Source: Candidatus Saccharimonadota bacterium (GTDB taxonomy: Bacteria > Patescibacteriota > Saccharimonadia > Saccharimonadales > UBA4665). From it: DNA of 32,000 bases. A model generated the notes under the pieces. The model saw only the letters and a list, made by a program, of their open reading frames with translations. It made no database searches and was not told where the DNA came from. This document shows positions 3,847 to 31,089 of the stretch, piece by piece. The DNA lies in assembly GCA_016699935.1 (NCBI GenBank), contig CP064992.1:570001-602000 (forward strand). The letters are read 5' to 3'. Position numbers and translations under genes: made by a program. How positions within the stretch are numbered: the stretch's first letter is position 1; the number at the start of each line of letters is the position of its first letter.

Positions 3847-5346
3847 GTGGACCTTTGGAAAGAGTGGTGGCCCCGCCGCCACCCGAACCGCCCCCGGCGG
3901 CGTGGCGTCTTCGCCAGCATCGCCGTCGCCCTCGTCGCCCTCGTCGCCCTCGGCGCGCCCGCCGCCATGGCGACATACAACCCAACGGTCTCGGTGACCG
4001 TTGACGCGCCATCGAAGTGTTTCCCAGCCGGCACCGAGGAGGTGAGCTTTGGGTACACGATCACCAACGGCACGGTTCCGCAAGGAGCCAACGTGTCGCT
4101 CAAGGACACGACCAGGGGGTGGGTCATCGGACCCAACGCCTCCATTGAGGAGGTGCTGCCATCCGGCGGTACCTTCTCATCGATTGAAACCCGGCGGTGA
4201 TGAACCACTCGTACGAGTTGACGATCAAAGGGCCTCGTGGGCGGCACCGACACGGTGACCTTCACCATCCCCGGTGTCTGCCCGGTCGAGAAGACCAAGG
4301 TCACCGCGGTCGACGGGAAGTTCTCGAACCTCTGCGGTCCGGGCTACAACCTTTCGTTCGCGGAGACCCCGACCGATGGCGTGAAGTACGTCCAGACCCG
4401 GACGGGCAACACGCTCAAGGTCACGCCGGAGGTCACGGACAGCTCGAAGTACGAGCTCACCAACCCCGGCTGGTCGCAGACCAAGACCGACGACCTGGTC
4501 GCCTGCCCGGTCGAGAAGACCAAGGTCACCGCGGTCGACGGGAAGTTCTCGAACCTCTGCGGTCCGGGCTACAACCTTTCGTTCGCGGAGACCCCGACCG
4601 ATGGCGTGAAGTACGTCCAGACCCGGACGGGCAACACGCTCAAGGTCACGCCGGAGGTCACGGACAGCTCGAAGTACGAGCTCACCAACCCCGGCTGGTC
4701 GCAGACCAAGACCGACGACCTGGTCGCCTGCCCGGTCGAGAAGACCAAGGTCACCGCGGTCGACGGGAAGTTCTCGAACCTCTGCGGTCCGGGCTACAAC
4801 CTTTCGTTCGCGGAGACCCCGACCGATGGCGTGAAGTACGTCCAGACCCGGACGGGCAACACGCTCAAGGTCACGCCGGAGGTCACGGACAGCTCGAAGT
4901 ACGAGCTCACCAACCCCCCTGGTCGCAGACCAAGACCGACGACCTGGTCGCCTGCCCGGTCGAGAAGACCAAGGTCACCGCGGTCGACGGGAAGTTCTCG
5001 AACCTCTGCGGTCCGGGCTACAACCTTTCGTTCGCGGAGACCCCGACCGATGGCGTGAAGTACGTCCAGACCCGGACGGGCAACACGCTCAAGGTCACGC
5101 CGGAGGTCACGGACAGCTCGAAGTACGAGCTCACCAACCCCGGCTGGTCGCAGACCAAGACCGACGACCTGGTCGCCTGCCCGGTCGGCACCCAGAAGGG
5201 GCCGGACAGCGACGACGCCGTGTCGTTCGAAAGAACATCACCCCGCAGGGTGGCTGCTGATTGGCTTCGGTGGCGCGGCGTTGTTCGTCATTGTTCTCCT
5301 CTCCGCCTTCGCGGGTCGGCGGAACGGTGCCCGGTCTCGGTCGTAA
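3847..5346 (+). CDS. High-GC secreted repeat surface protein of actinobacterial style, with three or more frame breaks as assembled.
   Basis: GTG start at 3847 after GAAAGGA. Signal peptide ..RPRRRGVFASIAVALVALVALGAPAAMA|TYNP. Four identical 75-aa repeats. C-terminal GWLLIGFGGAALFVIVLLSAFAGRRNGARSRS* ends at 5346. GC3 is nearly saturated. Frame breaks near 4200-4237, 4914-4919 and about 5220. Confidence 0.6.
4281..5179 (+). repeat. Four tandem 225-bp repeats, identical except for a net 1-nt deletion in copy 3; a truncated fifth unit starts at 5180.
   Basis: Unit starts (cccggtcgagaagacc) at 4281, 4506, 4731 and 4955. Copy 3 reads caacccccctgg where the others read caaccccggctgg. Confidence 0.95.
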
Positions 5347-5359
5347 GACCGGACTGTGG

Positions 5360-5716
5360 GTGCGAGTGGTCTTCGGACTTATCGCACTCGCGCTGATGGT
5401 GCGCGGCTTCGGGCTTCGGGAGGATGTACTTCTCCCAGAGGACCCGGAGCCGAGCCCATCGGCAACGGCGCCGTCGGTGACGAGCAACGCAGCTACGGCT
5501 TCGCCGAGCTCGTCACCGACAGTCGTCGGACCGACCGCCACGTCGGTACCGACAATGACCGCACCTTCGCTCCCCGCTGTGGGTGAGTCGATGCCGGTCA
5601 AAATTGTCATCGACACCGTCGATGACAAAACCGCTATCCACATCGAGCGGAGATCGCAAAGGTGCCCGTCCGGCCAGTTCTGGTCGACGGTCGCTGGCGT
5701 GTTCGTCCGCCCGTAG
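5360..5716 (+). CDS. High-GC membrane-anchored protein with a Pro/Ser/Thr-rich linker; function unknown and possibly truncated.
   Basis: TM segment VVFGLIALALMVRGFGL, then PEDPEPSPSATAPSVTSNAATASPSSSPTVVGPTATSVPTMTAPSLP, then PVKIVIDTVDDKTAIHIE. The GTG start at 5360 is tentative. Confidence 0.3.
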   Translation: MRVVFGLIALALMVRGFGLREDVLLPEDPEPSPSATAPSVTSNAATASPSSSPTVVGPTATSVPTMTAPSLPAVGESMPVKIVIDTVDDKTAIHIERRSQRCPSGQFWSTVAGVFVRP

Positions 5717-5722
5717 ATAGTG

Positions 5723-5756
5723 CTGAGGCGCTTCGGCAGGTGTACCTGCGCCTCAG
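5723..5756 (+). terminator. GC-rich hairpin after the island's last ORF; no U-tract.
   Basis: CTGAGGCGC, 16 nt, GCGCCTCAG; a 9-bp perfect stem 7 nt after the stop at 5716. Confidence 0.4.
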
Positions 5757-5782
5757 TGATGTACCAGAACTAGTTCCGGCCG

Positions 5783-6130
5783 TCATGCCGTCGAATCCTG
5801 CTCCGGCGGGAATCTACTTCGACGGACACATGTCGTGACCGTAACGGTAAGGTCTGTGATGGCGCCTTCGACCGTCTTCAGGAAACTGAAGGTCGGCCAA
5901 TCCAGGTCAAGCTTTTCCTCGAAAACGGGTTTACACTCGTTTTCGAAAAGTTTTGGTCGGACACCATTCAAAAGGCTCTCCGCGCACAGCGCCGAGTTTT
6001 ACGATGGCGTCCCAGGCGTTCTTCACCTCGTGGGCTGTAACCTACGGAAGATGGAGCCGCCTCCACCCACAATTACCTCGTCAAGGGGAAGCTTGTGGCG
6101 GTCGAGCGCTGGAGGTAGTGGACGCTAGTC
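5783..6130 (-). pseudogene. Degraded ORF of unknown family, readable only by joining three frames.
   Basis: Minus-strand pieces ..ALDRHKLPLDEVIVGGGGSIFR / VTAHEVKNAWDAIVKLGAVRGEPFE / NGVRPKLFENECKPVFEEKLDLDWPTFSFLKTVEGAITDL.. Confidence 0.3.
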
Positions 6131-10505: not shown

Positions 10506-11269
10506 TGGTGCAGTTTAACCTTCTACCAGACATAAAGCTTGAATTTGTAAAAGCTCGGCGCATGAAATACCTGATGTCGTTTGTCTCATTCATTGTGGGG
10601 GGCGCTGCGATTACGGCGCTGTTGTTTGCCTTCTTCTTTGTTAATGTTATTCAAAAAAAGAGCCTCAATGACTTACAATCTGACATAAAAACCTATAGCA
10701 ACGATCTAAAGAATACAAAAAATCTGGACAAGATTCTCACGGTGCAAAATCAGCTCGGTGCGCTCACATCGGTTAATAATAAACCAGGGCTTCATGAGCA
10801 AAAACCAGTCGGAAGCCGATTATTTGGCTACCTGACGCAAGTCACACCAGACAAAGCAAGTCTCACGAAGCTAACGGTCGATTTTTCTCAAACAACGATG
10901 TCTATTGGTGGCAAGGCGCCGACACTTGACGTCGTCAGTGTGTACACTGATACGCTGAAGGCTACGGGCTATAAGATTGGTCCAGATGTACAGCCTAAAT
11001 CAATAACTGACGTGTGCCCAAATATTGACGGCAACCAACTGGCTTTACCAGATCGGATGATTCTCGATAAAGATGCAAACTGCGTCATGCCGCCCAAAGC
11101 GTTTAGTGAGGTCGTCTTGAGTCAGTTTGGCCGCGATGATAAGGGAGCGACTTTTACCATTACGCTCAAGTACAATGCCGATATCTTTGATGATACCAAA
11201 CAGGTTCAAATTGTCGTGCCGTCAGGTCTTCAGACGAACCAAACTAATTTATTCGAGGCGGGGATTTAA
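10505..11269 (+). CDS. pilN: PilN-like pilus assembly protein.
   Basis: FNLLP motif followed by a single TM segment. Its start overlaps the pilM stop (TAATG). Confidence 0.65.
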   Translation: MVQFNLLPDIKLEFVKARRMKYLMSFVSFIVGGAAITALLFAFFFVNVIQKKSLNDLQSDIKTYSNDLKNTKNLDKILTVQNQLGALTSVNNKPGLHEQKPVGSRLFGYLTQVTPDKASLTKLTVDFSQTTMSIGGKAPTLDVVSVYTDTLKATGYKIGPDVQPKSITDVCPNIDGNQLALPDRMILDKDANCVMPPKAFSEVVLSQFGRDDKGATFTITLKYNADIFDDTKQVQIVVPSGLQTNQTNLFEAGI

Positions 11270-12195: not shown

Positions 12196-13997
12196 GTGAG
12201 CGTCCTTTCAGCTACCGAACAGACGCAAGTCGAAGATAAACTCGTTGAGGATGCAGTGCTCACCCGGGCTGATTTGGCGGAGTTCAAAAAACAATCAAAA
12301 GATACAAGCACTCCTCTATTCGGGCTGCTTGTTATGAGCGGGAAGGTTACGAACGAACAGCTCACGAAAACCATCGCACACGTTTCGAAAATCCCATATG
12401 TGAATCTCCTTGAGGCTAGGATAGATGCGAAAGTGCTTGAGATGCTACCGCAGGATATCGCAGAGCGGTATATGGCTGTGCCGCTTGGAGAAATACAGCA
12501 CAGGCTCGTCGTGGCTATGCTAGAGGCCGATAACGTCAGGCGGTAGATTTCTTGAGTAACCGTATCGGTCGGCCACTGAAGGTCTACGCAGCAAGCGAGG
12601 AAGGCATCCGTCAAGTTCTGCACAATACTCAGCCAGGCTCTCCGACAATCTGGTGAATGAAATCGGTAGGATGGGTGATGATCTAAAAGTAGATACGGCG
12701 GTACAGGACGAACAAAAAGCCCAAAAAGGCTGCCGAAAATATCACCTCTATCGTCCAAGACTCCCCGATTAGTAAGGCTCTATCGACCATTCTTGAATAC
12801 GCTGCAAAAAACCGGGCTAGCGATATTCATATCGAACCTCTCAAGGGAAGTCTCAAGATACGCTGCCGGATCGATGGTATCTTGCGAGAGATCATGAACC
12901 TCCCGAAAAGTACGGAGCCACCCCTCGTTTCGCGCATAAAGATACTGTCGAACCTTAAGATTGATGAACACCGCGTGCCGCAAGACGGTGAGTTTACGAT
13001 TAGTGTTGGCGGTAAGGACATCGACCTGCGCATATCCATCAGTCCTGTGATATGGGGTGAGCAGGTTGTCATTCGTCTGCTTGACAAAAGCGGTACGAGT
13101 CTCAAGCTTGAGGACATGGGGTACCACGGGCGCAGTTTGCGAACAATCCGAAACGGCTTGGAGCGCACTAACGGTATGATTCTTACGTCAGGCCCAACCG
13201 GATCAGGTAAATCAACAAGCCTCTACGCACTCTTACAAGAAGTGAAGAACGATGGGGTCAATATTGTCACGCTTGAAGACCCGGTTGAATACAAGATGGA
13301 CGGTATTAACCAAATACAAGTCAACGCTGACGTCGGGCTGACGTTTAGTGGCGGTTTGCGTTCTATACTACGACAAGATCCTGACATCGTCATGGTGGGA
13401 GAGATCCGCGATAAAGAGACGGCCGAACTCGCTGTGCAAGCAAGTCTGACCGGTCACCTAGTCTTCAGTACGCTACACACAAACAGCGCCGCAGGCATTT
13501 TACCTCGACTTCTCGACATGGGTGTCGAACCATTTCTTATCGCGAGCACAGTACATGTCGTCATTGGTCAGCGACTTGTAAGGCGGATCGGTAATAGCAG
13601 CGAACAGTATCAATCTAGCGCCGTCGAGACGGTGGCAATCAAGGAGGCTCTGAAGGGTCTGTTACCGCCGGACGCAGAACACATGGCTGCGGTTGCCCAA
13701 GATTTAGGCTACGAGAGCTTGCCTTTAGCAACTGATAGCGCTTATACTTTAACCAAGGGCAAAGACAGCCCCGGTTCCCCAGGTGGCTACAAGGGCCGAA
13801 TGGGGTTGTACGAAGTGTTCGAGGTGAGCGAAACAATCCAACAGCTTATCTTGAAACGAGCCACGAGCTCTGAGATCCAAGCTCAGGCTGAACGTGAAGG
13901 AATGGTTACCATGCGTGCGGATGGTTTTCTGAAGGCGCTGGCAGGCCAAACCACCGTCCAAGAGATAAATCGTGTGGCATCAGCAGATAGCGCTTAG
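12196..13997 (+). CDS. pilB: Pilus extension ATPase PilB (GspE family).
   Basis: T2SSE N-domain-like start. Walker [10 protein letters not shown], then ..LRQDPDIVMVGEIRD..TGHLVFSTLHTN. Several frame breaks between 12540 and 12880. Confidence 0.85.
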
Positions 13998-21243: not shown

Positions 21244-22151
21244 CTACTTGTGGTGGAATTTTTCGTGTACAGCTTTCAGGTGCGGGTCGGTGACGTGGGT
21301 GTATATCTGCGTAGTTGAGATATTACTGTGACCCAGCATGGCCTGGACAGAGCGGAGGTCGGCGCCGTTCATCAGTAAATTCGTCGCAAAACTATGCCGC
21401 ATCGTGTGGGGCTGACGTGCTTGGTAATACCAGCCAGCAAGGCATAGTGCGCAACCAGTCGCTGGATGCTCCGCGCCGTTAAGCGGTGAAAATTCCCACT
21501 ACGGTCAACCGTTTTTCGGCCGCTGTAGCGCATAAATAATGGTTTGGTGGTGTCGGTTCGCTTGTCGAGGTACTGCTGTAGCCACTCGGCAGTTTCCAAG
21601 CTGATAAAGATCGGGCGATCTTTTTGACCCTTACCGCGCACCATGAATTCTCGTCGCTTGAGGTTAATATGGTCGCGGTCGAGCCCAACTAGCTCTGATA
21701 CGCGTAATCCGGAGCTGAATAGTAGCTCTAGGATGGCACGGTCGCGCAGGCCGGCTACAGTGTTTGTATCTGGCTGGTCAAATATGCGCTGCAGCTCTTC
21801 CTCATTCAGGAAGGTTACCTGGGGTCGTTTCGTCCGGGATAGCTCTATGGTATCTGGTGCCATACACTTCATTCCGCGTTTGTGGCAGAACTTCAAGAAG
21901 CTGCGAAGAGCAATGAGGTGGTAGTTGAGGGTGCTTTTCTGTAACTCATCATGAACATTTGTTCCGAGTCGGTTGAGCCAGAGCCGCCACTTGCGCACAA
22001 GCTCTTGGTCGATATCTTCGACAGCTAAGTCGCCACCGTAATCAACGAGCCGGGTGAGGTAATGGTCATAATTGCGAATCGTTTTTTGGGAGCGGTTTTG
22101 CTCTATTTCGAGATATTCGAGAAAATCTGTCTTGGCTTTCGTAAACTGCAT
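21244..22151 (-). CDS. Tyrosine recombinase of the XerC/XerD-like family.
   Basis: The N-terminal SAM-like domain reads ..[23 protein letters not shown]... The catalytic tail [39 protein letters not shown] is restored by adding one base at the run 21408-21411. Confidence 0.8.
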
Positions 22152-22152
22152 A

Positions 22153-22208
22153 TGAATAAGTATCAAGTATCGAGTATGAAGTATCAAGTATCAAGTATCA
22201 AGTATTTC
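22153..22208. repeat. Heptanucleotide array in the divergent recombinase/ndk intergenic region.
   Basis: TGAATAA GTATCAA GTATCGA GTATGAA GTATCAA GTATCAA GTATCAA GTATTTC. Confidence 0.9.
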
Positions 22209-22817: not shown

Positions 22818-22822
22818 ACTAT

Positions 22823-22856
22823 GTCCCGATAGTTCAACGGATAGAATAACTCCGTC
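22823..22856 (+). pseudogene. Exact copy of the first 34 nt of tRNA-Arg(CCT), from the 5' end into the anticodon loop.
   Basis: 34/34 identity with 23069-23102. The sequences diverge after ..ACTCCGTC. Confidence 0.9.
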
Positions 22857-23068
22857 AAATTTACCCCATGAAATCTAGTGATTTCATGGGGACCCCATTA
22901 ACAGACCGGGAAGGTGAGACTCGCCTGCTAAGCGAGTCTCAGGGGAATCTTCCGTGTCAAGCTATGCCTGACGCCACGCAAGTACCGGGGCCGCCGAAGC
23001 CAAACGAGCCCTTCTCTAAAGAATTCGAGATGTTATGTCGAGTTCGGGTTATGGTAAGATTATCTCGT
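22857..23068 (+). other. Hairpin-rich spacer between the tRNA-Arg fragment and the intact gene; candidate structured RNA.
   Basis: Perfect 12-bp hairpin at 22864-22891. Hairpin GAGACTCGC-CTGCTAA-GCGAGTCTC at 22916-22940, enclosed by CGGGAAG/CTTCCG. Hairpin GTCAAGC-TAT-GCCTGAC at 22956-22972. TGgTAAGAT, an extended -10, lies 8 nt before the tRNA. Confidence 0.5.
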
Positions 23069-23143
23069 GTCCCGATAGTTCAACGGATAGAATAACTCCG
23101 TCCTAAGGAGCAGATGTTGGTTCGATTCCAGCTCGGGATACCA
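23069..23143 (+). tRNA. tRNA-Arg(CCT)
   Basis: Manual cloverleaf: acceptor GTCCCGA/TCGGGAT, D arm GTTC..GAAT, anticodon loop GTCCTAA, T arm GTTGG-TTCGATT-CCAGC, encoded CCA. Confidence 0.85.
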
Positions 23144-23154
23144 AACGACACACT

Positions 23155-24065
23155 ATGAATATGAAACCGTATGATGTTATAGCATTTGGGGGCTGTTACC
23201 TCGATATCAATACAGTTGGTTTGCCATTTGCTGGTCGTGGTATACCTGTCGAAAAAGAGATTCGCGGTAAAGATTATGAGGTTTTGCCTGGTGGCTCCGG
23301 TATAAATTTTGTCCGAAGGCTAAAACTGTTTGGGCTACAGGGTTTATTCATTGGAATGAAGGGTGATGACGCAGCGGGCACGTTGATTGAACAGCTTCTT
23401 GTCGAAGAAAATATACAAGTATGCCTTTTGCCTGCAATGGGTAGTCGGACGAATATCGGGCTGAATATGGTAGGTGAGCGAGGTGATCATGTGGTGTTTA
23501 GCTTAGGGAATGCAAACCAGGCATTGTCGAGCAAGTTACTTCTGCCCGAGCTCGCCAAAGAAGTAACGGATAAAACATTCTTGTATATGGGTACGTTGTA
23601 TAAGCTTGATGGCTTGCGCCTGACTTTGGAGCGGTTATTGCACTTGCAAAACGGCAAGGCGCAATGACGGTGGTAGATCATGGTAGGATTACGCCCGGCG
23701 TACCCTGAACGATTTCGGCAAGTTCGAAATGTCGTTCTGGCGGCGGATTATTATTTACCGAGTAAGGCTGAGTTTCTCGAGACTTGGGAGGTGAGCAGTG
23801 TCGAAGAGGGCTTCGACTGCTGCAAAAATGGCACCGCAGCTCGTGACAATCGTAAAGATGGTTCCCGCGGAGCGCACTATCTCGTGGAAGGCTCCTTCAA
23901 AACCGTCCCGGCCGTAGAGGGCATACATTCTGGCAATGTTACCGGTGCGGGAGATACCTTTAACGCGGGCTTCATAGCTGCTATGAAGCAGGGTCAATCA
24001 TTGCAATTAGCAATCAAAACGGTTGTGAAATAGCCGCGACTCATATTACAAAACCACTACGCTAG
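23155..24065 (+). CDS. PfkB-family carbohydrate kinase.
   Basis: GG..LD, PGGSG.NF and the signature NVTGAGDTFNAGF. Frame breaks near 23665 and at the A-run near 24017; the corrected stop is at 24063-24065. Confidence 0.7.
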
Positions 24066-25798: not shown

Positions 25799-26193
25799 TT
25801 GCATTTTTATTGTTTGCTTGGTAAACTGACCTCTGTTATCCTATTGAGGCAAACAGTGTTGTTCTCGATGGTCGTTGAGGAACCTACTCTCATTGAGCAA
25901 ATGTATAGCAGCCTTGCGGAAGACCAAATCGGGGAGAGAAATAGACCGTTAGGCTTATGAGAGGATGAGCATAGGCATTGGTCGAAGCTTTTACCGAATA
26001 GGCATAATGAGACTGAGCCGTTAGTTCCGATAAGCGACCGCAAACAAAGGGGCTTATCACGCTTCTTTTGATCTTGAGGAGATCGTCAGCTTGGCGGACG
26101 AGGAACGGAATCAAAAAGATGCTTGCATATTTCTGGCGATTGTCCTGGTCGAGCCGACCACATTAACAACTAGTTTGATACAATGTACAGCAT

Positions 26194-26259
26194 GCGCCCG
26201 TAGTGAAGAGGCCTATCACGCCTCCCTGTCCTGTCACGGAGGAGATCGCCGGTTCGAAC
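26194..26259 (+). pseudogene. tRNA-Asp(GTC)-like sequence with a 12-nt anticodon loop and no canonical T arm or acceptor 3' strand.
   Basis: GCGCCCG TA GTGA AGAGGCCTA TCAC G CCTCC CTGTC|CTGTC|AC GGAGG AGATC GCCGG TTCGAAC.., after which the cloverleaf is lost. TGaTACAAT, an extended -10 (26176-26184), lies 9 nt upstream. The hairpin CCCCAG..CTGGGG plus TTTTT lies at 26293-26321. Confidence 0.6.
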
Positions 26260-26752
26260 GGTCAGATCGCCGGCGTACGCCAGGAGTAAAAACCCCAGTT
26301 TAAAAACCCCCTGGGGTTTTTGGTCCGTGTCCGCCGGTTGAAACCGGCGATCAGCGAACGAACTTACAGATCGGAGTTCGTACAGGTTTGAGCGTGCAGG
26401 AGCTTGCTCCGAAAAGCGAAAATGCCATTTGAAAAACCCCGAAGACTAAAAAGTCCGCCGGTTCGTCGGGCGAAATTTTAGTGGAACTTATCGAAAAAGA
26501 TTTAGCGGAGAAGGGCGAAGCCCGTTATCCGGTTGGTTCTGTCTGCCGGGTACGGATCGGCGATAGTCCCGCCATCGCGGGACGTAATCGCCGGGGCGGA
26601 CGCCAATAAATAGCGCCAAAGAACTCGTTGCTTAGCTGCATGCGATACAACCTGGTCGTAAGGTGGCGATACATCCATTTTCCTTCTTGCGCTTTAAAAT
26701 ACCATGCCGTATACTTCGAATTACAACAGAGGTAATAAGGGAGATACTACAC

Positions 26753-27087
26753 ATGGCAAAAGTTAATCACGCAAAAGGTTTTGTGGATTTTGTTCGCGAA
26801 CAAGGAGTTGTGGGTCTAGCGGTCGGTCTAGCTATTGGTACTGCGGCTGGCGCTGCGGTCAAGGAAATTGTTGACCAGTTCATCAGTCCTATCGTGGGCT
26901 TCATCCTCGGGGGCGCTGACCTCAATGGACTTAAGTGGAATACTGGGCTTAGTCGTGGTGGCGAAGACCTGGTGTTTGGCTGGGGCGCCATCCTTGGTGC
27001 AGTTATCACACTGCTGGCTACCGCTTTTGTGGTTTATCAGATTGTCCACATGGCCAAACTCGATCGCATGGACAAGAAAAAGACTAG
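26753..27087 (+). CDS. mscL: Large-conductance mechanosensitive channel MscL.
   Basis: GFVDFVREQGVVGLAVGLAIGTAAG..IV..FISPIVG. The as-assembled ORF reads through the terminator and tRNA-Thr. One extra A in the run 27077-27081 gives ..DKKKKD*. Confidence 0.8.
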
Positions 27088-27106
27088 TTTCTTCTTCGTA
27101 AGGTAT

Positions 27107-27132
27107 AAAAGAGCCCTGAAAAGGGCTTTTTT
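27107..27132 (+). terminator. Rho-independent terminator of mscL.
   Basis: AGCCCT-GAAA-AGGGCT followed by TTTTTT. Confidence 0.7.
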
Positions 27133-27140
27133 ATACAGGG

Positions 27141-27170
27141 TTGTACACCTTGTACCGACTCGTTTATACT
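27141..27170 (+). promoter_or_regulatory. Candidate promoter of tRNA-Thr.
   Basis: TTGTAC, 18 nt, TATACT, then 9 nt to the mature 5' end. Confidence 0.55.
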
Positions 27171-27179
27171 TTACATCGT

Positions 27180-27252
27180 GCCACCTTAGCTCAGTTGGTA
27201 GAGCATCTCATTCGTAACGAGAAGGTCGCCAGTTCGATCCTGGCAGGTGGCT
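27180..27252 (+). tRNA. tRNA-Thr(CGT)
   Basis: GCCACCT TA GCTC AGTTGGTA GAGC A TCTCA TTCGTAA CGAGA AGGTC GCCAG TTCGATC CTGGC AGGTGGC T. CCA is not encoded. Confidence 0.85.
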
Positions 27253-27418
27253 CAGGCTTTGCCAGAGGCAAAGCATGTATCAATTCGCAATTTTCAGTTT
27301 TCATTTGTGGTTATTCCGGCGAAGCTGGTTTATAAAAGCAAAAGCAAAGCTTTTGCCTGTAACAATTGCTAATTGTAAATTGCTACATGATAACTGCTTT
27401 TTGCCATTTGCAAAAAGC

Positions 27419-27470
27419 GCGGGTGTCGTATAACGGTCATTATGTAGCCTTCGTGAAGGCTGAGACGGGG
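27419..27470 (+). pseudogene. Copy of the first ~52 nt of tRNA-Gly(CCC), with an altered 8-nt anticodon loop.
   Basis: Identical to 27623-27673 except for one D-loop base and the loop TTCGTGAA in place of TTCCCAA. Homology ends in the T-stem G-run. Confidence 0.85.
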
Positions 27471-27622
27471 TGAGACCCGCCTATGGCGGGTCGCAAGGCC
27501 GGAGACTGATTTGAAGCTATGCTTCAAGTATGTCGAGGCGGGGTCGAGATCCGGCTGATTATGAAATAATCACCGAAATCGTGACCGACTCAAGTCGAAC
27601 CTTGTATAATTATTATTGCTGA
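27471..27622 (+). other. Hairpin-rich spacer between the tRNA-Gly fragment and the intact gene; candidate structured RNA related to 22857-23068.
   Basis: Three perfect 7-bp hairpins with triloops: ACCCGCC-TAT-GGCGGGT (27475-27491), TTGAAGC-TAT-GCTTCAA (27511-27527) and TGATTAT-GAA-ATAATCA (27556-27572). TATAAT at 27605-27610. Confidence 0.5.
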
Positions 27623-27696
27623 GCGGGTGTCGTATAACGGTTATTATGTAGCCTTCCCAAGGCTGAGACGGGGGTTCGACTCCCCCACCCGCACCA
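27623..27696 (+). tRNA. tRNA-Gly(CCC)
   Basis: The cloverleaf, with anticodon loop TTCCCAA and encoded CCA, is clear. As assembled, the C-run 27682-27686 is one C short of closing both the T stem and the 7-bp acceptor stem. Confidence 0.8.
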
Positions 27697-30620: not shown

Positions 30621-30857
30621 TGGTGGGCGTTATCACTAGTGGAATCGGCCTGTTTCATCACGAAAAAGGCCAGCACTGCTGACCTTCTCTCGTGGTGGGC
30701 GATATCACTTCGTGGAATCGGCCTGTTTCATCACGAAAAAGGCCAGCTGTGCTGAGCCTCTCTCGTGGTGGGCGATATCACTTCGTGGAATCGGCCTGTT
30801 TCATCACGAAAAAGGCCAGCTGTGCTGACCTTCTCTCGTGGTGGGCGATATAGGATA
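30621..30857 (-). repeat. Three tandem 72-73-bp repeats plus a partial fourth; on the minus strand each ends with the 3'-terminal 13-18 nt of tRNA-Val including CCA.
   Basis: Plus-strand units start with tggtgggcg at 30621, 30693, 30766 and 30839. The tRNA's own copy is at 31013. Units 2 and 3 differ at two positions; unit 1 is more diverged. Confidence 0.9.
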
Positions 30858-30976
30858 GCAGGCTGCGCCTTTTTACGGGCAATCTTTCTCAGAACAAGTT
30901 CCTGCGAGAGCTTGCCCTCCACCGAACCTTCGTTCGCTAAGCTCACTCTTACGGTTCTCTCCTATTCGTTAGCACC

Positions 30977-31012
30977 ATATATAAATACCCCAAATGAAGG
31001 GGTATTTATATA
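30977..31012 (-). terminator. Perfect 15-bp AT-rich hairpin immediately after tRNA-Val.
   Basis: ATATATAAATACCCC, 7 nt, GGGGTATTTATATAT. Confidence 0.55.
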
Positions 31013-31089
31013 TGGTGGGCGATATAGGATTCGAACCTATCACCTCCACAACGTCAATGTGGCGCTCTAGCCAAATGAGCTAATCGCCC
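31013..31089 (-). tRNA. tRNA-Val(GAC)
   Basis: GGGCGAT TA GCTC ATTTGGCTA GAGC G CCACA TTGACGT TGTGG AGGTG ATAGG TTCGAAT CCTAT ATCGCCC A CCA. Confidence 0.9.

Follow-up and report, generated by a model that had tools for sequence, protein, structure and literature searches.

Introduction

Partial duplication of transfer RNA (tRNA) genes by integrating elements is well known: in tRNA-borne genomic islands and prophages an intact and a partial tRNA copy flank the insert, the junctions fall in the T-loop or the anticodon loop, the insert supplies the missing part of the tRNA, and repeated events give tandem fragments (PMC9897764). In an archaeal case, a 5′ fragment of Caldiarchaeum's tRNA-Thr lies upstream of the gene at a distance of 1.8 kb (Sugahara et al. 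2012, PMC3293823). Here we describe a far smaller arrangement at the tRNA-Gly(CCC) gene of a Candidatus Saccharimonadota bacterium (GenBank assembly GCA_016699935.1), located in a 32,000-nucleotide stretch of contig CP064992.1 (positions 570,001 to 602,000 of the forward strand) that we call the window and whose numbering is used throughout. An orphaned 5′ part of the gene precedes a spacer of 152 nucleotides (nt) and then the intact gene, and the first part of the spacer is a hairpin-rich core without an open reading frame (ORF) that recurs at other tRNA genes and which, with moderate confidence, we read as a mobile cassette.

Compared with islands and prophages, the inserts here are only 152-246 nt (or 150-250 bp) long and carry neither an ORF nor an integrase gene; moreover, the Gly insert rebuilds the 5′ portion of the gene and its promoter, a mirror image of the known pattern, and a structured core of about 100 nt sits inside the loop. 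The more familiar supply of a 3′ part, with the displaced 3′ fragment at the far end, is not what the window Gly locus displays, but it was seen in L003, L005, L007 and L011 (L numbers denote the loci or contigs from public genomes and metagenomes that we compared with the window). The Caldiarchaeum disruption is alike in that a 5′ fragment stands upstream of a functional copy after insertion and the locus varies within the population; it differs in that the element is 1.8 kb long, encodes a recombinase and resides in an archaeal host, where introns are removed by a splicing endonuclease (PMC3293823). Neither in the literature nor in Rfam 15 did we find a description of ORF-less versions of about 200 nt.

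Three further systems invite comparison. Group I introns occupy the anticodon loops of bacterial tRNA-Leu (UAA), tRNA-Arg (CCU) and tRNA-Ile (CAU) and, like the core, are small structured RNAs of about 200 nt or less in a loop of several tRNA species; unlike them (RF00028), the core has no Rfam match, lies mostly in the T-loop, has imprecise junctions and stands alongside an intact gene copy. Miniature inverted-repeat transposable elements (MITEs) and palindromic elements derived from IS200/IS605 are likewise short, ORF-less, hairpin-rich, multi-copy and patchily distributed among close strains. The core, in contrast, has no terminal inverted repeats and no fixed target duplication (its ends, TGAGAC... 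and ...GTGAC, are direct-like, and its first and third hairpins are separate internal ones), occurs only in tRNA loops and is accompanied by a long partial gene duplication, with flanking repeats of 14-57 nt of tRNA that vary in length; the one IS200-like element encountered, in L013, ends in hairpins of another kind. Homology-facilitated illegitimate recombination in the course of natural transformation is known from Acinetobacter, Streptococcus and Pseudomonas, and it resembles what we see in L030, with one junction at the short conserved motif GGTTCG and the other in homologous sequence that covers the gene 3′ end and its flank; it is a general route rather than an element, however, and leaves fixed core boundaries and moves between unrelated tRNAs unexplained.

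Architecture of the tRNA-Gly(CCC) locus

All parts of the locus lie on the forward strand. The orphaned 5′ part, tRNA positions 1 to about 52 (27419-27470), was recognized as a repeat of the intact tRNA-Gly(CCC) at 27623-27696, which both ARAGORN and Rfam call: 27419-27452 equals 27623-27656 at 33 of 34 positions and 27456-27470 equals 27659-27673 at 15 of 15, and the copy diverges from the gene after GGGG (27470). Its anticodon loop is TTCGTGAA, 8 nt long (27450-27457) and one base longer than the intact TTCCCAA, just as an initial annotation made from the sequence alone had described. That annotation was also right about a structured 152-nt spacer (27471-27622), which is rich in hairpins and folds more stably than its shuffles (z = -3.6). 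It had further placed three perfect triloop hairpins within CCGGA..TCCGG. All three exist (GACCCGCC-TAT-GGCGGGTC with 8 bp at 27474-27492, TTGAAGC-TAT-GCTTCAA at 27511-27527, and TGATTAT-GAA-ATAATCA at 27556-27572), but only the middle one lies between CCGGA (27500) and TCCGG (27550), and covariation across the family supports outer pairings other than CCGGA/TCCGG.

The spacer consists of a core of about 115 nt (27471-27586), which contains no ORF, and a 36-nt linker (27587-27622). The core comprises H1 (27471-27495), defined by the consensus fold and pair counts as U-G, a bulged A, GACCCGCC-UAU-GGCGGGUC and then C-A; H2 (27498-27539), a long interrupted hairpin built from consensus helices 2-4 with an apical UUGAAGC-UAU-GCUUCAA at 27511-27527; and H3 (27542-27586), which in single-sequence folds has a conserved base, GGUCG/CGUGACC, and a variable tip. 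Both the minimum-free-energy and the centroid fold of the Gly leader use H1. The linker came in with the core. It holds a T-loop vestige (GACTC), the reverse complement of tRNA-Gly positions 51-59 (AGTCGAACC, 27593-27601) and TATAAT (27605-27610), 12 nt ahead of the intact gene. In the promoter scan GTGACC, with which H3 ends in conserved form on its 3′ side, also reads as a -35-like hexamer, so that GTGACC, 18 nt and TATAAT form a promoter-like site before the intact gene with 10 of 12 matches.

Core family and consensus fold

The search for relatives used a two-block pattern taken from both window spacers and then covariance models. In public genomes the pattern found 4 loci, all in metagenome-assembled genomes of Saccharimonadales, and in metagenomes 7 more, while covariance-model searches of the loci already collected added 4 further distinct and more divergent copies. 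The 15 distinct core copies come from genomes of Saccharimonadales and from metagenome contigs and can be sorted into three or more subfamilies; as far as sampled the family is confined to Saccharimonadales. An independent model, built only from 14 non-window copies, matched the window at 27469-27548 (86.4 bits, E 2e-21; Gly core) and at 22913-22995 (45.7 bits, E 4e-10; Arg core) and nowhere else in it. The similarity of the Gly spacer to that of tRNA-Arg(CCT), at first noticed as shared architecture and colinear blocks (GGTGAGACYCGCC, the hairpin partner of GGTGAGACYCGCC, and AAGCTATGC), is thus statistically significant. Searched against Rfam 15 at the gathering threshold and at E<=10, both spacers returned the tRNA family only, and the best other score, 22.8 bits, fell on tRNA. 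Phage and plasmid collections (BLAST) and IMG/VR (two pattern scans) contained no copy; a single viral match, L012, was a high-GC terminator hairpin matched by chance.

The host tRNAs belong to eight species: Gly-CCC, Arg-CCT, Arg-TCT, Pro-CGG, Pro-GGG, His, Lys-CTT and Ser-CGA. Five of the eight (Gly-CCC, Arg-CCT, Pro-CGG, Lys-CTT and Ser-CGA) have C at position 34. Isoacceptors of this kind are often dispensable, since tRNAs with U34 can read the same codons, and this dispensability may bias where insertions survive.

Covariation supports the core hairpins. Over core positions 1-80, 96-98% of cells are paired, compared with 79-83% in column shuffles and 32-43% with slid partners, and 10-15 of 24 pairs have changed on both sides. 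H1 begins at the first base after the tRNA-derived GG and consists of U-G, a bulged A, 8 bp and a loop of 3-7 nt; in the window-free model set its 10 pairs are 98% paired, 6 of them with compensatory changes, and in the third subfamily it reads ACCAGCA/UGCUGGU as against ACCCGCC/GGCGGGU. H2, capped by a UAU triloop in most copies, has both-side changes in 9 of 14 pairs. H3 has 7 bp and a GAA-type triloop in the short (87-nt) forms and the same base with an extended variable tip in the long (106-115-nt) forms; single-sequence folds give the hairpin in 15 of 16 copies despite their differing sequences, the exception being the decayed Arg copy of the window. Cores of subfamily 2 are exactly 87 nt long in five of six cases. 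Within stems, G-U pairs (8) outnumber A-C mismatches (3), which mildly favours an RNA read in the direction of the tRNA. A search by eye for hammerhead, hepatitis delta virus-like and group I motifs yielded one candidate, CUGAU...GUAAG near H2, which is not conserved (its position 2 varies between U, A and G).

Arrangement of copies at tRNA genes

Every well-preserved copy of the core is flanked on both sides by tRNA-derived sequence. The junction lies after G52/G53 of the T stem in most copies and after position 36/37 of the anticodon loop in three Pro copies, and the core takes the place of 1-3 loop nucleotides. Two arrangements occur. Downstream copies (L003 Lys, L005 Arg-TCT and His, L007/L009 Arg-CCT, L011 Ser) follow an intact tRNA and its terminator hairpin, with a degenerate 5′ vestige, 5-12 nt equal to tRNA positions 43-54, the core, and an exact copy that runs from position 55/56 through the 3′ end; at Lys, Arg and His the 5′ vestige is without the anticodon arm, though it retains a D-like hairpin and an acceptor-like strand. 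Upstream copies (window Gly, L001 and L002 Pro-CGG, L008/L010 Pro-GGG, and two at Arg-CCT in L019-L022) run from an exact 5′ part through the core, a short loop or 3′ vestige and a -10-like box to the intact tRNA. Whichever the type, identity to the intact gene is 97-100% for the outer tRNA part, and the stretch lying between core and intact gene is degenerate. By eye, the new tRNA part starts exactly at mature position +1 in the six upstream-type cases inspected.

An intact gene adjoins 11 of the 15 copies, and three of the others lie at a contig end or on a short contig. Wherever an intact gene adjoins, the copy-to-copy distance is 156-247 nt, and the core ends are well defined. An intact tRNA and a direct partial repeat bound the insert at both window loci (52 nt at Gly, 35 nt at Arg) and at 14 further loci. 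In L002 a complete tRNA-His (G-1, C73, CCA) is broken only by an 87-nt core, and the contig stops 14 nt later; in-silico removal of the core lets ARAGORN call tRNA-His there, whereas the other 12 copies tested gave no junction-spanning tRNA, the odd call in L011 being non-cognate. L004 is a solo core copy amid housekeeping genes. Several copies occur per genome, at different tRNAs, and the unrelated host tRNA species share only about 10 nt of T-arm sequence.

Some features of these loci stand apart from the core. Reverse-complement copies of the T stem and T-loop of the cognate tRNA, 9-12 nt long, occur in inserted linkers or just after tRNA terminators: AGTCGAACC at window Gly (27593-27601), AATCGAACC in L019 (about 10851-10859 and 11034-11042, reverse strand), and GAACCGGCGATC after tRNA-Asp; copies were located at 11955-11966 in L013 and 56 nt downstream of tRNA-Asp in L015. 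Among inverted matches of at least 9 nt, 7 of 11 map to tRNA positions 42-63, and the inverted copy of L019 pairs with the T-loop remnant in a hairpin of 8 bp. We considered these pieces as a primer-binding site and rejected the idea, as they have the wrong orientation and priming would yield the reverse complement of the core. Two orphaned 5′ fragments carry 8-nt, largely replaced anticodon loops, TTCGTGAA at window Gly and GTTTGATC at L023 tRNA-Asp (about 13803-13810), and in their flanking stems the only departure from the intact gene is one base in the Gly D-arm; such loops are not random decay. A second insert family starts with G(C/T)GGACGAGGAACGGAG directly after the T-loop GGTTCG and contains a long hairpin and GAGTACCGCAGGGAGGAG; it occurs at tRNA-Arg in L013 (8816-8946) and L030 (931-1078) and at tRNA-Asp in L023 (13822-13967) and the window (26093-26150). 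The covariance model of the main core does not detect it, and its left end resembles the H1 3′ strand and linker of the main family, a likeness on which the two may be related.

Comparison of orthologous loci

The closest relative sampled that includes the Gly locus is L013, whose Ndk is 91% identical to that of the window. There, 157 nt of spacer separate tRNA-Thr from an uninterrupted tRNA-Gly without a core; L015 likewise has no core at this locus. The initial annotation had named a lack of conservation in related genomes as a ground for refuting it, and the locus is indeed not conserved. The spacer between tRNA-Thr and the fragment in the window aligns colinearly with the Thr-to-Gly spacer of L013, down to the hairpin abutting position 1, and the 5′ copy of the window therefore sits at the ancestral gene start. 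It follows that the inserted block is the core, the linker and a new 5′ part, and that the fragment is the gene's ancestral 5′ part, now displaced, rather than, as had been raised, a mere decayed paralogous tRNA-Gly. Comparison with L013, L015, L017 and L019 likewise indicates that the intact gene takes its first 53 nt or so from the inserted block and the rest from the ancestral 3′ part. The linker is unlike the native upstream region of tRNA-Gly. Relative to the same four loci, both window Gly copies share lineage-specific bases, so the new 5′ part arose by local copying, derives from a very close strain or has since been homogenized.

At the orthologous Ndk/tRNA-Arg(CCT) locus nearly every sampled lineage has a different state. 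It is empty in L015 and L017, with tRNA-Arg 43-66 nt after Ndk and no match to the core; L007 and L009 carry a downstream-type copy of subfamily 1; L019-L022 carry two tandem upstream-type copies and a further 3′ fragment; L013 has a 56-nt 5′ copy followed by an insert of the second family; L023 has a 34-nt fragment, a hairpin and a different tRNA-Arg allele; and L030 is a nested mixture. This last locus reads as a recombinant of L023-like and L013-like alleles, with junctions in the T-loop GGTTCG and the acceptor 3′ strand, and recombination at short conserved tRNA motifs thus does shuffle modules. The first 81 nt of the window Gly core share 95% identity with the core of L007, which far exceeds the genome background (Ndk of the two genomes is 57% identical, and their tRNA-Arg genes, compared by eye, have clearly diverged further than their cores). 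Such identity across distant genomes points to recent horizontal spread, the alternative being very strong constraint.

The second core copy at tRNA-Arg(CCT)

The Arg locus of the window, also on the forward strand, begins with positions 1-34 of tRNA-Arg(CCT), an orphaned 5′ part that is broken off within the anticodon loop (22822-22856); this 35-nt repeat is 100% identical to the intact gene. A 12-bp hairpin, CCCCATGAAATC-TAGT-GATTTCATGGGG, follows at 22864-22891, and fragment and hairpin are both present in the relatives L023 and L030. The core copy detected by the covariance model (22913-23006) is decayed, with H1 and H2 kept and H3 broken (its fold fails). It lies in a T-arm-like stem of its own (GAAGG/CCTTC), with flanks homologous to those of L004. 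The intact tRNA-Arg(CCT), called by ARAGORN and Rfam at 23069-23143, is preceded by TGGTAAGAT, which is extended -10-like, and the spacer folds more stably than its shuffles (z = -3.8).

Proposed origin and spread of the core

We read the core, with the moderate confidence stated above, as a mobile cassette without an ORF that enters tRNA genes by recombination and in every case leaves an intact gene or rebuilds one. At the Gly locus, a block of about 204 bp would have recombined into tRNA-Gly(CCC) at the T-loop, consisting of the core with H1, H2 and H3 (about 115 nt), the 36-nt linker with its own promoter, and a replacement for tRNA positions 1 to about 53. The old 5′ part would have stayed at the ancestral position, fused to the core and dead as a tRNA, while the new 5′ part joined the old 3′ part to restore a working gene, a 5′ counterpart of the way in which integrating elements rebuild tRNA 3′ ends. 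The cassette would thereby spread between genomes and tRNA species, coming to rest in the T-loop or anticodon loop of a copy that is disabled, for the most part next to an intact one. Upstream and downstream arrangements could both result from a single exchange on either side of the core, if the incoming DNA resembled a tRNA gene that bears the core in its T-loop, together with a short backbone of promoter and terminator; double exchanges between strains, as in L030, would spread and nest cassettes. We infer that recombination at short conserved tRNA sequences (T-loop GG-T) drives both insertion and module shuffling. Natural transformation probably helps the exchange, and the core is probably transcribed from tRNA promoters as a structured RNA under selection.

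Several observations weigh against a mobile cassette. The elements could be linked to no recombinase, transposase or reverse transcriptase, neither free nor circular forms were seen, and the phage, plasmid and IMG/VR collections hold no copy. A tyrosine recombinase gene 640 nt upstream of the Arg locus was considered as the element's integrase and set aside as a syntenic gene (302-305 aa) that is present with or without the core; it is kept in 9 of 10 distinct relatives sampled and missing only in L013. The junctions are inexact, with 1-3 loop nucleotides missing, and neither a fixed target duplication nor terminal inverted repeats were found. The local, lineage-specific bases in both Gly copies do not fit a simple import from afar. 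The model accounts neither for the replaced 8-nt anticodon loops of window Gly and L023 Asp nor for the reverse-complement T-arm copies in linkers.

Those unexplained features, together with the +1 start of the new tRNA part, are hints of another origin, which we consider unlikely: the core could be an autonomous-looking, RNA-structured cassette of about 90-115 nt that has no protein gene and enters the single-stranded T- or anticodon loops of tRNAs or tRNA genes, by its own catalysis or through an RNA intermediate, with the 8-nt loops as footprint-like traces. If true, the cassette leaves tRNA-scaffolded RNAs behind and would be either a new class of ribozyme or the bacterial equivalent of retro-elements derived from tRNA.

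A functional, domesticated small RNA gene built on a tRNA scaffold, using tRNA promoters and processing and with the duplications as by-products of recombination, strikes us as rather improbable. High sequence conservation, structure-preserving substitutions between close copies (L007 and L009, L008 and L010) and the excess of stem G-U pairs over A-C mismatches would suit it, as would the downstream copies, which keep an acceptor-like stem (GUUCUGG/CCGGGGC in L007, GGGCUUG/CAGGCCC in L003) and a D-like hairpin, are missing the anticodon arm at three different tRNAs and in several cases end in CCA. Set against this are the lack of the core in many close relatives (L013 for Gly; L015, L017 and L023-L033), its multiple copies per genome at different tRNAs, the existence of decayed copies such as window Arg, and the absence of a 3′ acceptor strand from upstream-type copies, window Gly included; the idea is in any case compatible with mobility and so no true alternative to it.

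We think it quite improbable that the copies are remnants of kilobase-size integrative elements, inserted by a tyrosine integrase at the T- or anticodon loop, that have lost their interior and kept the core as a conserved arm region of the phage attachment site (attP). Such integrations are recognized by partial tRNA duplication in which one copy is intact (PMC9897764), and the archaeal case has its 5′ fragment upstream of the intact gene (PMC3293823). Tandem 3′ fragments at L011 tRNA-Ser and window tRNA-Val would fit as well. The junctions, too, lie in the T-loop and anticodon loop, reportedly the crossover sites of integrases. Yet the copy distances all fall within 156-247 nt, the core ends are defined and five of the six subfamily-2 cores have exactly the same length; no integrase or phage gene adjoins any copy and none of the phage, plasmid or viral collections has a match; the core lies within the loop between the T-stem halves, where an integrase overlap region could not tolerate about 100 nt; and protein arm sites are not expected to show hairpin covariation.

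An intron-like insertion in the T- or anticodon loop, self-splicing or removed by an enzyme, with the tandem intact copies as secondary, appears more doubtful still. In its favour, the tRNA-His of L002 is broken by the core alone and restored by its removal, and the core is a compact, covarying RNA structure; group I introns, moreover, are reportedly found in the anticodon loops of bacterial tRNAs, among them tRNA-Arg(CCU). Rfam, however, returned no group I, group II or self-cleaving ribozyme match at E<=10. The exon junctions are short of 1-3 loop nucleotides, and core removal gives no canonical TΨC loop; interrupted copies are without an anticodon arm or a 3′ half, and an intact gene stands beside 11 of 15 copies, three others being at a contig end or on a short contig. 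Even in L002 the contig ends 14 nt past the interrupted gene, and an intact copy may follow.

The weakest proposal, which the initial annotation had implied with its stable RNA of about 200 nt, is a cis-acting tRNA-Gly leader in which the tRNA-like fragment and ACCCGCC switch pairings to control transcription or processing of the downstream tRNA; the region is strongly structured and ACCCGC can indeed pair with GCGGGU at the 5′ end of the fragment, but H1 is kept, with compensatory changes, on tRNAs with unrelated acceptor stems, so that the pairing with the Gly 5′ end is a coincidence of this acceptor stem, both predicted folds use H1, the core also stands downstream of tRNA genes, past their terminators, and so lacks the constant upstream position of a riboswitch or T-box-like leader, the L013 Gly site is empty, and the intact gene has its own promoter-like site between core and gene, all of which makes such control highly improbable.

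Two other sources were rejected. A plain tandem duplication or decayed paralogue is at odds with the relatives of the spacer core at eight tRNA species in other genomes and with the non-uniform decay, since the outer part is 97-100% identical and the inner vestige unrecognizable. The IS200-like element of L013 (2365-3212; Y1 transposase, 205 aa) lies between the pilin and prepilin-peptidase genes and has perfect end hairpins of about 19-27 bp (GCAAGGAGACTCCCTG...), which have no more than GAGACTC in common with H1. The window does not carry this element, and its pilin and prepilin-peptidase genes are 10 nt apart.

Other features of the window

The window is a chromosome segment with type IV pilus genes and genes for a Xer-like recombinase, Ndk, a PfkB kinase, a SurA-like peptidyl-prolyl isomerase, MscL and NrdR, and its gene order matches that of many Candidatus Saccharimonadales contigs. 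ARAGORN and Rfam called four tRNA genes, adding tRNA-Thr(CGT) (27180-27253, forward strand) and tRNA-Val(GAC) (31013-31089, reverse strand) to the Gly and Arg genes described above, and partial tRNA copies occur at four of the five tRNA loci.

The one locus without a called gene is that of tRNA-Asp(GTC), which synteny places in 26028-26620 and which was called neither by ARAGORN nor by Rfam at the gathering score. In a tRNA-Asp-like stretch at 26195-26275, scoring 19.6 bits, the 5-nt sequence CTGTC is duplicated in tandem within the anticodon loop, the T-arm holds about 10 additional nt, and the 3′ end does not match. It is preceded by a decayed 5′ copy and a remnant of the second insert family (GGCGGACGAGGAACGG..., from 26093) and followed by an array of T-arm-like fragments. 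In all relatives examined at the Asp locus (L013, L023 and L030) tRNA-Asp is intact. On the reverse strand at 30766-31089, a terminator comes after tRNA-Val(GAC), next a structured but unrelated insert of about 125 nt, then 18 nt that copy the tRNA 3′ end (30856-30839) and have a terminator of their own, and lastly a 13-nt copy (30778-30766) whose terminator is nearly identical; this array is two successive 3′-side events by another insert family.

Three protein-coding genes are irregular. The Xer-like recombinase (21372-22187, reverse strand) is truncated at its C-terminus (271 aa versus 302-305 aa in relatives), the PfkB kinase (23155-24033, forward strand) is split over two ORFs, and the MscL ORF (26663-27217, forward strand) reads through into tRNA-Thr; these are either frameshift errors of the assembly or genuine pseudogenes of the lineage. 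At 62-64% G+C, positions 4001-6000 differ from the rest of the window (43-54%), and the long ORFs there are without a Pfam match.

Implications

The partial copies at most tRNA loci of this window, and a tRNA-Asp that gene finders miss, are a warning for tRNA annotation in these genomes, and the inserts offer natural markers for strain-level recombination in Saccharibacteria. The core also adds a structured RNA family to a phylum for which, to our knowledge, few have been described. If our preferred reading of a mobile cassette is true, tRNA genes of ultra-small episymbiotic bacteria are remodelled by elements about fifty times smaller than the usual islands, which carry no gene and are built around a conserved RNA fold, and the question it raises is how a cassette of about 100 nt moves across genomes and tRNA species without killing single-copy tRNA genes.

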